In this document: positions 8,576 to 62,237 of the stretch, in pieces
Position numbering within the stretch: position 1 is the first letter of the stretch
Layout: each line of letters starts with the position of its first letter
Assembly (NCBI GenBank): GCA_964016885.1
Contig: OZ024744.1
Coordinates: forward strand, 94,240,001 to 94,304,000
Length of the DNA stretch: 64,000 nt
Direction: 5' to 3'
Source: Eledone cirrhosa
Taxonomy: Eukaryota
Program-made: the position numbers and the translations under genes
Notes under the pieces: generated by a model
What the model was told of the DNA's origin: nothing
Seen by the model: the letters and a program-made list of their open reading frames with translations, nothing else
Database searches by the model: none

Positions 8576-8667
8576 ATTGTTATACTTTGGGAGGGTCATG
8601 TTGCTAATATCGGTTTCAACACACGTTTTCAAATAAAGATTCTTGCTAAACAAATTCAGAAACGAAA
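8576..8667 (-). mobile_element. Short island ending in the shared terminal motif CATGACCCTCCCAAAGTATAACAAT (probable Penelope-like element tail)
   Basis: Same motif ends the Penelope-like element at 45036-45060 and islands at 60588 and 62120. Confidence 0.6.
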
Positions 8668-8928
8668 TATATATATATATATATATATATATATATATAT
8701 ATATGTGTGTGTGTATGAAATGTGTGTGCGCGTATATATTTATATATATGTGTGAATATGAAATATGTGTGTGTGCGCGTATATATTTATGTATGTATAT
8801 ATATGAGATGTGTGTGTGTATATGTTTATATGTATATATATGAAATGTGTGTGTGTGTATATATTTATATATATGTATGTATATATATATATCTATATAT
8901 ATATATGTATGTGTGTGTGTATGTGTGT

Positions 8929-9080
8929 AATAACACAAACGGTACAATATATATGAGGAATATATTAGTTTAACGCTTAAAATCGCAAGAAGAGGCTCTT
9001 AAGGTTTCGGATGTTAGTCCTTCATCAGAAGGAAGAATGAGGAATTAGAAAGGTTGAAGGGAGAGGCAGGGCAGAATATT
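8929..9080 (-). mobile_element. Penelope-type terminal-repeat fragment with degenerate minimal hammerhead core
   Basis: Minus strand CTT-CTGATGA-A-GGA-CTAACA-TCC-GAAA-CCTT-AAG around 9000-9031. Confidence 0.5.
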
Positions 9081-12000
9081 ATGTATATGTAATATATATA
9101 TAATGTAATAGATATATGTAATACATATAAGTACGTATATATCTGTAATATGTATATATGTCATGTATATATATATGTCATGTATATATATATGTAATAT
9201 GTATATATAATGTAATATGTATATATATATGTCTATATATATATATATGTGTAATGTGTATATATATATATATATATATATATATATATATGTAATGTGT
9301 ATATATATATATATGTAATGTGTATATATATATATATGTAATGTGTATATATATGTGTATATATGTAATGTGTATATATGTAATATGTGTATATATGTAA
9401 TATATATATATGTATGTATGTATGTATGTATGTAAGTATGTATGTATATATACGTATTATGTAAGTATGTATGTATATATACGTATTATGTAAGTATGTA
9501 TGTATATATACGTATGTATGTAAGTATGTATGTATATATACGTATGTATGTAAGTATGTATGTATATATACGTATGTATGTATATATACGTATGTATGTA
9601 AGTATGTATGTATATATACGTATGTATGTATGTATATATATGTATGTATATATATATATGTATGTATATATATGTATGTATATATATGTATGTATATATA
9701 TGTATGTATATATATGTATGTATATATATGTATGTATATATATGTATGTATATATACGTATGTATATATATGTATGTATATATACGTATGTATATATATG
9801 TATGTATATATACGTATGTATATATACGTATGTATGTATATGTATGTATGTATATATACGTATGTATATGTATGTATGTATGTATATATATGTATGTATA
9901 TATATGTATGTATGTATATATATGTATGTATGTATATATATGTATATATATATATATGTGTATATATGTATGTATATATATGTATGTATGTATATATATG
10001 TATATATATATATATGTGTATATATGTATGTATATATATGTATGTATATATATATATGTATATATATATATATATGTATATATATATATATATGTATATA
10101 TATATATATATGTATATATATATATATATATGTATATATATATATGTATATATATATATGTATGTATATATATGTATGTATATATATATGTATGTATATA
10201 TATATGTATGTATATATATATGTATGTATATATATATGTATGTATATATATATGTATGTATATATATATGTATGTATATATATATGTATGTATATATATA
10301 TGTATGTATATATATATGTATGTATATATATATGTATGTATATATATATGTATGTATATGTATATATGTATGTATATGTATATATATATATATGTATGTA
10401 TATATATGTATGTATATATATATATATGTATGTATATATATGTATGTATATATATGTATGTATGTATATATATATGTATGTATATATATATATGTATGTA
10501 TATGTATGTATGTATGTATATATATGTATGTATATGTATGTATGTATGTATATGTATGTATGTATATATATGTATGTATGTATATATATGTATGTATGTA
10601 TATATATGTATGTATGTATATATATATGTATGTATATATATATGTATGTATATATATGTATGTATGTATGTATATATGTATGTATATATATGTATGTATG
10701 TATGTATGTATGTATGTATGTATATATATATGTATGTATGTATGTATATATATATGTATGTATGTATATATATATATGTATATATACATATGTATGTATG
10801 TATGTATATATATGTATATATACATATGTAATGTATGTATATATATATATGTAATGTATATATATATATGTAATATATATATATATATGTAATATATATA
10901 TATATATGTATGTATATATATATGTAATATATATATGTAATATATATATATATATATGTAATATATATATGTAATATATATATATATATATATATATGTA
11001 ATATATATATATATGTAATATATATATATGTAATATATATATATGTAATATATATATGTAATATATATATGTATATGTAATATATATATATATATGTAAT
11101 ATATATATATATATACGTAATATATATATATACATATGTAATATATATATATATATGTAATATATATATACATATGTAATATATATATATATATATGTAA
11201 TATATATATATATATGTAATATATATATATATATGTAATATATATATATATGTAATATATATATATATATGTAATATATATATATATATGTAATATATAT
11301 ATATATATATGTAATATATATATATATATGTAATATATATATATATATGTAATATATATATATATATGTAATATATATATATGTAATATATATATATATT
11401 ACATATATATATATATATATATATATATATATGTAATATATATATATATGTAATATATATATATATATATGTAATATATATATATATATATGTAATATAT
11501 ATATATATATATGTAATATATATATATATATGTAATATATATATATATATATATGTAATATATATATATATATATATATATGTAATATATATATATATAT
11601 ATGTAATATATATATATATATATATGTAATATATATATATATATATATGTAATATATATATATATATATATGTAATATATATATATATATATATGTAATA
11701 TATATATATATATGTAATATATATATATATATGTAATATATATATATATATGTAATATATATATATATATATTACATATATATATATATTACATATATAT
11801 ATATATATATATTACATATATATATATATATTACATATATATATATATTACATATATATATATATTACATATATATATATATATTACATATATATATATA
11901 TATTACATATATATATATATATATATTACATATATATATATATATATATTACATATATATATATATATATTACATATATATATATATATATTACATATAT

Positions 12001-15000
12001 ATATATATATATATTACATATATATATATATATATATTACATATATATATATATATTATATATATATATATATTACATATATATATATATATATTATATA
12101 TATATATATATTACATATATATATATATATTATATATATATATATATTACATATATATATATATATATTATATATATATATATATTACATATATATATAT
12201 ATATATTACATATATATATATATATATTATATATATATATATATTACATATATATATATATATATTATATATATATATATATTACTATATATATATATAT
12301 ATATATGTAATATATATATATATGTAATATATATATATATATATATATATATGTAATATATATATATATATATATATATATGTATATATATATATATATA
12401 TATATATATATGTAATATATATATATATATATATGTAATATATATATATATATATATATGTAATATATATATATATATATATATGTAATATATATATATA
12501 TATATATATATATATGTAATATAAATATATATATATATATGTAATATATATATATATATATATATGTAATATATATATATATATATATATGTAATATATA
12601 TATATATATATATGTAATATATATATATATATATATATATATGTAATATATATATATATATATATGTAACATATATATATATATATGTAATATATATATA
12701 TATATATATATGTATATATATATATATATATATATGTAATATATATATATATATATATGTAATATATATATATATATATATGTAATATATATATATATAT
12801 ATATGTAATATATATATATATGTAATATATGTAATATATATATATATGTAATATATATATATATATATATATGTAATATATATATATATATATATGTAAT
12901 ATATATATATATATATATGTAATATATATATATATATATGTAATATATATATATATATATATATGTAATATATATATATATATATATATGTAATATATAT
13001 ATATATATATATGTAATATATATATATATATATATTACATATATATATATATATATATGTAATATATATATATATATATGTAATATATATATATATATAT
13101 ATGTAATATATATATATATATATATATGTAATATATATATATATATATATGTAATATATATATATATATGTAATATATATATATATATATATATATATAT
13201 GTAATATATATATATCTATATATGTAATATATATATATATATATATTTGTAATATATATATATATGTAATATATATATATGTAATATATATATATCTATA
13301 TATGTAATATATATATATATATATGTAATATATATATATATATATATGTAATATATATATATATATATATGTAATATATATATATATATATGTAATATAT
13401 ATATATATGTAATATATATATATATATATATGTAATATATATATATATATATATATATATGTAATATATATATATATATATATATATGTAATATATATAT
13501 ATATATGTAATATATATATATATATATATATGTAATATATATATATATATGTAATATATATATATATATATATGTAATATATATATATATATATATATAT
13601 ATGTAATATATATATATATATGTAATATATATATATATATGTAATATATATATATATATTACATATATATATATATATATTACATATATATATATATATT
13701 ACATATATATATATATGTAATATATATATATATATATATATGTAATATATATATATATATATGTAATATATATATATATATGTAATATATATATATATAT
13801 ATGTAATATATATATATATATATGTAATATATATATATATATATGTAATATATATATATATATATGTAATATATATATATATATATATGTAATATATATA
13901 TATATGTAATATATATATATATATATATGTAATATATATATATTTATATGTAATATATATATATATGTAATATATATATATATATGTAATATATATATAT
14001 ATGTAATATATATATATATGTAATATATATATATATATGTAATATATATATATATATGTAATATATATATATATGTAATATATATATATATGTAATATAT
14101 ATATATATATGTAATATATATATATGTAATATTTATATATATGTAATATATATATATATATGTAATATATATATATATATGTAATATATATATATATATG
14201 TAATATATATATATATATGTAATATATATATATATATGTAATATATATATATATATGTAATATATATATATATGTAATATATATATATATATATGTAATA
14301 TATATATATATGTAATATATATATATATATATGTAATATATATATATATATATATATATAATATATATATATATATATAATATATATATATATATGTAAT
14401 ATATATATATATAATATATATATATATATGTAATATATATATATATATGTATATATATATATATATGTATGTATATATATATATGTAATATATATATATA
14501 TATGTATGTATATATATATGTATGTATATATATATGTATGTATATATATATATGTATGTATATATATATGTAGTATGTATATATATATGTAATATGTATA
14601 TATATATGTAATATATATATATGTGATATATATATATATGTAATATATATATATATATATATGTAATATATATATATATGTAATATATATATATATGTTA
14701 TATATATATATATGTAAAATATATATATATGTTATATATATATATATGTAATATATATATATATATGTAATATATATATATATATATATGTAATATATAT
14801 ATATATGTAATATATATATATATGTTATATATATATATGTAATATATATATATATGTTATATATATATATATGTTATACATATATATATGTAATATATAT
14901 ATATGTGTAATATATATATATATGTTATATATATATATATGTAAAATATATATATATATGTAAAATATATATATATGTTATATATATATATATGTTATAT

Positions 15001-60980: not shown

Positions 60981-61222
60981 TAAAATATTAAACAAATAAT
61001 GAATAAAACAGTTCCTTATATTAAACAAAAAAAGGTTCATTATTTAATATAAGGAACTGTTTTATTCATTATTTGTTTAATATTTTATCTTGACTCTGTA
61101 TACCGTTTATCTTTCACCGAAAGTGATTTTTCATTACATCTCTTCTTTCCATGATATCCGGAATACATTGAGTTCTTCATACGGATTGGACACTACCGTA
61201 AACTCTTGGTAGATTTATCTAC
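60981..61222. mobile_element. Fold-back island: 45-bp inverted repeat (60981-61087) plus extension
   Basis: Arms 60981-61025 and 61043-61087; very degenerate hammerhead-like fold on the minus strand near 61097-61138. Confidence 0.5.
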
Positions 61223-61453
61223 ATATATATATGTATATATATGTATATATATATATGTATATATATGTATGTATATATATATATATATATATATATATAT
61301 ATATATATATATATATAGTATGTATATATATATATATATATATATATATATATATGTATATATATGTATATATATATATATGTATATATATATATATATA
61401 TATATATATATGTATATATATATATATATATATATATATATGTATATATATAT

Positions 61454-61511
61454 ATGATTTCTAATGAATGAAACAGTTCTAGTCCTGTAGAATCTCATCT
61501 ATATTAAAACT
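61454..61511 (+). mobile_element. 5'-truncated second copy of the 59599 hammerhead unit
   Basis: Identical to ~59608-59665 (ATGATTTCTAATGAATGAAACAG...ATATTAAAACT) but lacks the 5' strand of stem I and CTG. Confidence 0.85.
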
Positions 61512-62119
61512 ATATATATATATATGTATATATATATATATATATATGTATATATATATGTATATATATATATATATATATATATATATATGTATATATA
61601 TATATATATATATATGTATATATATATATATATATATATGTATATATATATATATATATATGTATATATATGTATATATATGTATATATATATATGTATA
61701 TATATGTATGTATATATATGTATATGTATATATATATATGTATATATATGTATATGTATATATATATATGTATATATATGTATATGTATATGTATATGTA
61801 TGTATATATATGTATATGTATATATATATATGTATATATATGTATATGTATATATATATATGTATATATATGTATATGTATATATATATATGTATATATG
61901 TATATGTATATGTATATATATATATATATATATATATGTATATATATGTATATATATGTATATATATATATATATATATATATATGTATATATATATATA
62001 TATATATATGTATATATATGTATATATATGTATATATATATATATATATGTATGTATATGTATGTGTGTATGTATATATGTGTATATGTGTATATATATA
62101 TGTATACGTGTATATATAT

Positions 62120-62237
62120 ATTGTTATACTTGGGGAGGGTCATATTTGTGTAATATTGCCAGAATTAATAACAGAACACACTCACTGTTTGGTTGGTTTT
62201 CGCTTCTCGCTGTCTTTTATATCTGTAATCTAGCTTA
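62120..62237 (-). mobile_element. Island ending in a variant of the shared terminal motif
   Basis: Minus strand ...AACCAACCAAACAGTGAGTGTGTTC...ATGACCCTCCCCAAGTATAACAAT. Confidence 0.6.

Follow-up and report, generated by a model that had tools for sequence, protein, structure and literature searches.

Results

The motif and its element

The window studied here, a stretch of 64,000 nucleotides of the genome of Eledone cirrhosa, contains a motif of 24 nucleotides at four places, once on the plus strand and three times on the minus strand, and each copy merges into a (TA)n tract (Table 1). These observations had been made in a preliminary description of the window, and they hold: the four copies are exact matches, 100 shuffled sequences gave no match, and a change from CCA to CCC is the only difference among them. 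No further site was found in the window with up to 3 mismatches. The motif almost certainly consists of codons 1-8 of the single open reading frame (ORF) of a Penelope-like element (PLE) that inserts in (TA)n, and is also the tail-less end of the pseudo-long terminal repeat (pLTR) of this element. This conclusion follows from the continuity of the ORF at L024/L031 for a subfamily B (CCC) and at L092 for a subfamily A (CCA), where the motif continues into DKSG, RYVDD, CxxxxCxxC and GIY-YIG. The PLE copies examined have 1-3 breaks each in their ORF.

A search of the 3.0 Gb genome, which the preliminary description had proposed, returned 40,241 exact copies of the motif, versus 0 for the reversed control. 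A conserved downstream stretch, the tail, follows the motif in 16,459 copies, and ATATA follows it directly in 18,968; the 4,814 copies in neither class were left unsorted. Past the tail, 466 subfamily-A copies continue into the ORF. Two ideas drawn from the window alone are thus confirmed, namely that the motif overlaps the start of an ORF and that it is common to several TA-inserting PLE subfamilies, of which two were found. The tail, however, had been put on the wrong side of the motif: the stretches so named are pLTR sequence upstream of the ATG, and the true tail lies downstream, in codons 9-28. Comparing A with B, only 1 of the 8 codons of the motif differs, versus 22 of the next 32 (9 silent, 13 not), which is suggestive of a constraint on the nucleotides of the motif beyond coding.

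Two fixed ends

Counting from the ATG, the tail-less end lies at +26, and the tailed end at +86 in subfamily A and from +69 to +84 in subfamily B, the tail being about 60 nt long. Among 96 contexts of subfamily A, the end is at +24/26 in 49, at +85/86 in 42 and at +74-79 in 3, while 2 run on; among 35 contexts of subfamily B, tail ends were read at +69/71 (6), +75 (2) and +83/84 (7). The fixed end at +26 agrees with the proposal that the motif is a conserved end of PLE terminal repeats and a likely priming site; what had been missed is that this end is one member of a complementary pair.

Both ends of subfamily A fall at the template AATAT^CG. The first 140 nt of A contain only three TA alternations of 4 nt, which end at +19, +26 and +86, and the one at +19 was used 604 times versus 18,968 for the motif end. 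On the side of the target, 85 of 98 tail-less ends are followed by at least 6 nt of TA. Judging from these sequences, a match to the AT of the target seems to be needed, but position seems to decide.

One tailed and one tail-less end per insertion

The pairing of the two ends was counted on 191 sites, all within the initial 27.4 Mb of contig C1 and comprising all 100 listed sites in which the motif is followed by ATATA and 91 of the 100 listed sites in which it is followed by the tail. These sites form 53 pairs of neighbours within 6 kb, and 44 of the pairs face outward: in 40, a tailed end meets a tail-less one within one subfamily; of the tailed-tailed pairs, 2 stay within a subfamily and 2 cross between subfamilies; no pair has two tail-less ends. 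Mixed ends are thus found in 40 of 42 same-subfamily outward pairs (p 2e-10). Two of the three same-subfamily tailed-tailed pairs examined are tandems in which the inner motif runs into the ORF and the far end is tail-less.

A second set was drawn from the 466 ORF-bearing copies and contains 40 loci; two loci already examined, a tandem neighbour and an array with a 46-bp spacing were excluded. Both ends are in view at 21 of these loci, and all 21 have one of each, the tail being on the inverted arm in 11 and on the direct arm in 10; the script alone gave 20/21, and locus L132, which it scored as tail-less at both ends, was re-read as having a tail with a deletion. The other 19 loci have one or no end in range. 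It is likely that the two ends are used once each per insertion as starts of reverse transcription.

The lengths of the arms vary freely. They range from about 40 to 3,800 nt, and in 48 pairs, whose printed junctions also differ, the tail-less arm is the longer one in 22 and the tailed arm in 25.

Variants common to both arms

Over their last 130 nt, the two arms of a pair resemble each other more than they resemble the arms of other pairs. In subfamily A the distance is 0.025 within pairs versus 0.066 between pairs (15 pairs, permutation p 5e-5), and in subfamily B it is 0.023 versus 0.066 (8 pairs, permutation p 2e-4), both sets being subsets of the 48 pairs chosen by arm length.

In addition, 3 of 128 distinct arms carry at least 29 changes from A to G on the sense strand, in tracts whose pattern, we infer, matches editing by ADAR. 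The arms of locus L049 have 30 of these changes in common; its tail-less arm is longer than its tailed one (477 vs 201 nt). The inverted arm of L092 follows its upstream unit at 74 sites versus 4, and 44 of the 74 have G for A. The exact edited strings of L049 and L092 each occur twice in the genome, once per arm. A looser edit pattern identifies 6 loci, 4 of them new (L146, L147, L149, L151): the arms of L147, a tailed/tail-less pair, have 21 A>G changes in common, those of L149 have 2, and L146 has one arm visible. In L049, L092, L147 and L151 the dense tracts cover the hammerhead and the palindromic part of the pLTR, and the edits of L049 remove the ribozyme core. In L151 the edits affect the antisense strand of the inverted arm, and the tail of this locus has a few sense-strand ones. 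The template of the inverted arm was sought at 19 tandem loci; it is the upstream unit in L092 and, weakly, in L107, and weakly the downstream unit in L124 and L136, the rest being uninformative or misaligned.

The protein and its relatives

The element has the features of PLEs with an endonuclease (EN+): a reverse transcriptase (RT) whose predicted fold is nearest to telomerase (TERT) structures (E 4e-8), a C-terminal GIY-YIG nuclease, pLTRs that overlap the ORF and have an optional tail, and a hammerhead motif. In both subfamilies the pLTRs stand in partial tandem or inverted arrangement, with the ORF start inside. The GIY-YIG domain was recognized by its motif, NVVYSIRC...YIGETAR..GER..EH (L024/L031, L092); Pfam gave no GIY-YIG match on the element ORF and a weak RVT_1 match (E 9e-4) below the cut-off, and on four homologues plus the EN part it gave no significant family.

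The Nematis clade (PMC8557442) has the same succession of RT, compact C-x5-CxxC-x7-C linker and GIY-YIG. The CX2-5CxxC linker before the C-terminal EN reads SCIDKKCITCKISPHINC when set against the Nematis rows of Fig. S2, and the linker is preceded by an IVERPG-type motif that resembles Nematis_Pp. The spacing between RT motifs 3 and 4 sets the element apart from Nematis and other canonical PLEs: it is 131 aa here versus about 61 in Penelope (our count on Fig. S1), and the source states that canonical PLEs lack a fingers insertion. All 20 homologues compared (P0001-P0020) have 126-134 aa, which places some 70 extra residues at the position of telomerase's insertion in the fingers domain (IFD) (L092:3657-5873, minus strand, and 20/20 homologues). 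Human TERT has about 118 aa in the same interval, again by our count on Fig. S1 and assuming that the aspartate is fourth in its row; the insertion is likened to the IFD by position and length, and we assign the element to no clade.

The features of other clades are absent or present only in part. Neptune (PMC8557442) has a long spacer inside its linker finger, and the roughly 20 extra residues of its rows are absent here. Naiad and Chlamys have an N-terminal EN, an IFD and no canonical hammerhead; our element has its EN at the C-terminus and a hammerhead core, so that it agrees with them only in having an insertion where the IFD lies and in targeting (TA)n. The WFNPP-type thumb linker and the RT motifs of Hydra are absent from subfamilies A and B.

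Three further observations concern the ORF. An asparagine-rich in-frame stretch occupies residues of about 250-450 in both subfamilies (L024/L031, L092); the Penelope elements of Adineta (PMC3846280) have N-rich inserts too, but at other positions. Locus L093 is internally deleted; its frame, open over about 370 codons, joins the ORF start straight to RT motif 4. Finally, a tandem array at G000:C1:132947045-132947576 consists of 12 units spaced 46 bp apart, each with the tail end of subfamily A and its ORF continuation.

The insertions of the window

The features discussed in this section are collected in Table 1.

Table 1. Features of the window; limits of arms are counted from the ATG of the element
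Feature	Position	Strand	Basis
Tail-less arm, subfamily A, -9 to +26, motif 8576-8599	8574..8609	-	blastn to natural full-length copy
Second arm, tailed, of this 97-bp insertion, +22 to +86, about 4 nt overlap with the first arm	8606..8670	+	blastn to natural full-length copy
Hammerhead-like island of another repeat family, core 9005-9028	8932..9085	-	no match to A/B references
Fragment (RT/thumb) from a young, unrelated PLE of the Hydra clade, 99.8% to full copy	43917..44792	+	WFNPP-type motifs match Hydra rows (PMC8557442 supplement)
Tail-less arm, subfamily A, -243 to +26: 3' untranslated region, hammerhead, AT-rich palindromic stretch, motif 45037-45060	44794..45062	+	
Minimal hammerhead motif in pLTR	44853..44897	+	stem I AGTCA/TGACT, core CTGAAGA, 6-bp stem II, GAAA
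GTGCGT, donor-like, 24 nt before ATG, also complementary to tail ACACAC	45013..45018	+	
Tail-less arm, subfamily A, -10 to +26, motif 60588-60611	60586..60622	-	blastn to natural full-length copy
Second arm, tailed, of this 54-bp insertion, +65 to +86	60618..60639	+	blastn to natural full-length copy
Tail-less arm, subfamily B, -91 to +26, motif 62120-62143, GTGAGT at 62185-62180	62118..62237	-	

Two of the four motif copies belong to complete miniature insertions, 8574-8670 and 60586-60639, in each of which a minus-strand tail-less arm meets a plus-strand tailed arm at a junction of 4-5 nt; the arms of 60586-60639 have no element sequence in common. No partner arm was found for 44794-45062 or for 62118-62237. 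The sequences upstream of the four motifs differ because the arms are of varying length, subfamily and neighbour.

An order of hammerhead, microsatellite, tail and motif had been described twice. At 44853-45060 the link to a hammerhead holds, the core at 44858-44886 on the plus strand belonging to the same element as the motif at 45037. At 9031-8576 the order was not confirmed: the hammerhead island at 8932-9085 has no similarity to the references of A or B, its core at 9005 is a chance neighbour from another family, and the sequence before the motif on the minus strand is the reverse complement of the tailed arm on the plus strand (8606-8670). Matches of about 72-83% to this third-family island are found at six other loci.

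The hammerhead motif of the pLTR is a predicted ribozyme. The stems of 44853-44897 fold with a z of only -1.35; core and stems are present in A, core and stem II in B, and stem II differs between the two by two compensatory pairs. Rfam found no family at gathering score over the window. The donor-like hexamers of the preliminary description are indeed present, at 24 nt (GTGCGT, A) and 42 nt (GTGAGT, B) before the ATG. The intron that they suggested gained no support, as one candidate spliced junction has 0 genomic copies, a weak test since PLEs that retain introns, as some families do near the ORF start, would not show it. In both subfamilies an upstream GTGTGTT can pair with the ACACAC of the tail, but this pairing found no support: it is no more stable than in shuffles (z +0.64, -0.15 and +0.72).

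The RT next to the motif at 45037 was rejected as a part of its element, since it comes from an unrelated Hydra-clade PLE of which 19 of 20 copies lack the motif at their 3' end. The interval 43917-45062 is a chimera, in which the Hydra-clade RT fragment is fused in sense to the arm of subfamily A at 44792/44794, either by a template switch between families or by a deletion. This Hydra family is very young: 120 of 150 scored matches are 100% identical over 150 aa, many of them in open frames of 784-795 aa. A small two-armed insertion derived from its 5' region lies head to head in 50854-51001 (50854-50911 minus, 50908-51001 plus), with unequal ends resembling those reported above. Other palindromic two-armed islands, AT-rich and between (TA)n tracts, are found at 59798-60115 and 60977-61226 (around 59086-61514) and at 23831-24121.

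Discussion

A model with two starts on one RNA

The start of the ORF, the two ends, their pairing, the free lengths of the arms and their common variants are observations, and we judge it likely that a single account explains them, in which the motif is both codons 1-8 and the tail-less end, one of two starts. The priming itself would probably take place from both strands of the target on one sense RNA, at sites that match AT. The GIY-YIG nuclease would nick both strands of (TA)n, and each 3' end would find 2-4 nt of pairing at an AT of the sense RNA, +26 serving one of them and the end of the tail the other. Both 3' ends would then be extended to random cDNA lengths. Microhomology would let the two cDNAs join head to head, and filling in would complete the insertion, a route called twin priming. 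The protein would probably act as a dimer, a feature borrowed from a prediction in PMC11167929. The pairing of tailed and tail-less ends would likely arise because both cut strands of the TA repeat start copying the same RNA, and the motif would be kept because it is both the start of the protein and the signal of a start site.

The published discussions (PMC3846280, PMC8557442, in the sections covered) suggest another origin, in which a single primed cDNA turns back or uses an antisense template, and resolution by the nuclease sets the tail. Some junctions are indeed palindromic, the inverted arms of L092 and L093 are shorter than the upstream unit and match it, and edits common to both arms need no further explanation when one is a copy of the other. 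However, a tail-less arm cannot supply a tail and a tailed arm cannot yield a longer copy, yet the tail-less arm is the longer one in 22 of the 48 pairs, including L049; a longer tail-less arm beside a tailed one therefore contradicts folding back of a single cDNA for such simple pairs. Given also the arms of 60586-60639, without common element sequence, and common edits that are A>G on the sense strand, we consider this origin unlikely. It is also quite unlikely, in our estimate, that whole two-armed units are re-copied from read-through transcripts, primed by the flanking (UA)n, so that the pairing is inherited from a few ancestors. The TA that follows 85 of 98 tail-less ends, the edits on the antisense strand of the inverted arm of L151, and the donor junction that the inverted arm of L093 shares with an internal repeat speak for it, while the variety of arm lengths and printed junctions among the 48 pairs speaks against it, as do three edited loci with sense-strand edits in both arms and two tested edit patterns without another copy in the genome. 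Such re-copying probably does occur besides twin priming, as in L151.

If the ends were chosen independently, with arms that became alike only by later gene conversion, half of the pairs would be expected to be mixed, versus 40/42 and 21/21 observed. Neighbouring inverted arms could convert each other, and the arm of L092 matches its nearer unit, but the adjacent arms of L151 stay 24 changes apart, and we hold this explanation to be very improbable. Lastly, the pairs face outward and are flanked by TA, as would the terminal inverted repeats of a TA-targeting DNA transposon or miniature inverted-repeat transposable element (MITE), the case that the preliminary description had named as fatal to its own reading. 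Equal terminal inverted repeats of fixed length and a transposase were not found; the unequal ends, the arms of so many lengths, the tandem copies and the continuity of the motif into an ORF with RT and GIY-YIG leave this case with practically no credence.

Several points weigh against twin priming on a sense RNA, or limit the data on which we base it. Subfamily B has tail ends scattered between +69 and +84 and makes no use of the TA run of 5 nt at +51. Locus L052 is a genuine tailed-tailed pair. The arms of L049 differ at 2 edited sites, and in L151 all 24 T>C changes are confined to the inverted arm; that arm was therefore probably copied from an antisense read-through RNA. Four public runs, set against L049, do not cover the edited tracts, which might conceivably reflect an assembly artefact or a later gene conversion between arms. 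Arm lengths are rough in 12 of the 48 pairs (9 overlaps of more than 45 nt, 3 gaps of more than 290 nt), and the loci used for arm lengths and within-pair distances were picked from the pair set, all on contig C1. Finally, the insertions that supply the ends are old, and within (TA)n neither the precise start nor a duplication of the target is visible.

Comparison with known systems

The origin of the inverted arms and of the one-sided tail of PLEs is described as open in PMC8557442 and is partly answered in PMC11167929. The pLTR of Pen2a_Av of Adineta vaga (PMC3846280) holds the first 12 codons of the ORF, and its optional tail extends to 22. This and related EN+ Penelope elements resemble ours by the inclusion of the first codons in the pLTR, a tail optionally carried by one of the inverted pLTRs, partial tandems and N-rich in-frame inserts. 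The element described here differs by its 8 codons, its tail of 60 nt, its (TA)n targets and its tens of thousands of copies, and also by a strict tailed/tail-less pairing in which the tail may be on either arm; our data favour a sense template, versus the antisense self-priming discussed there.

An experimental parallel is PAc, the Poseidon element of Anolis carolinensis (PMC11167929). In vitro it cuts both strands and extends each of them, and its two start sites lie inside the ORF and delimit the tail; an AT-rich target, a predicted dimer and a hammerhead in the pLTR complete the likeness. The starts of PAc are reported as neither homologous to the target nor strand-specific, whereas here the two main starts show a match of up to 4 nt to (TA)n, each being used once per insertion. 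The clade of PAc is without the zinc-finger linker present here.

In LINE-1, twin priming is occasional and uses variable internal sites, the first primer being set on poly(A). As in our model, the second primer comes from the other strand of the target and yields an inverted, truncated insertion (PMC2837659); here, in contrast, twin priming appears to be routine, both sites are fixed and inside the ORF, and in many cases one stretch of RNA is covered by both cDNAs.

The ORF overlap and the one-sided tail (PMC3846280, PMC11167929), the hammerhead (PMC4209133) and (TA)n targeting have been published already. A count of octopus PLEs (PMC13282606) does not describe their ends in the sections covered, and a preprint (bioRxiv 10.64898/2026.07.22.740005) does not discuss tails or priming in the sections covered. 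In the literature covered, whose scope leaves out Repbase, subscription papers and most supplements, we met neither a count of the pairing, nor a proposal of twin priming in PLEs, nor a named clade with a C-terminal EN and an IFD. The present analysis adds the counts, the microhomology at the start sites and the RT insertion of about 70 residues at the telomerase IFD position.

Conclusions

Taken alone, the motif is an ordinary PLE end. We see even chances for a larger, joint claim, that twin priming is obligate, one complex nicking both strands of (TA)n and priming the two at separate fixed sites, both AT-matching, on a single sense RNA, that this explains the inverted arms and the one-sided tail of PLEs generally, and that the element belongs to an unnamed clade with a C-terminal EN and a fingers insertion of telomerase length. 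This family offers exact coordinates for two starts, a known target, a rule of pairing and natural barcodes of single molecules, which brings the model within reach of the in vitro assay already published. It would also mean that, in such genomes, MITE-like palindromes of 50-500 bp, present in their thousands, are products of a retroelement.

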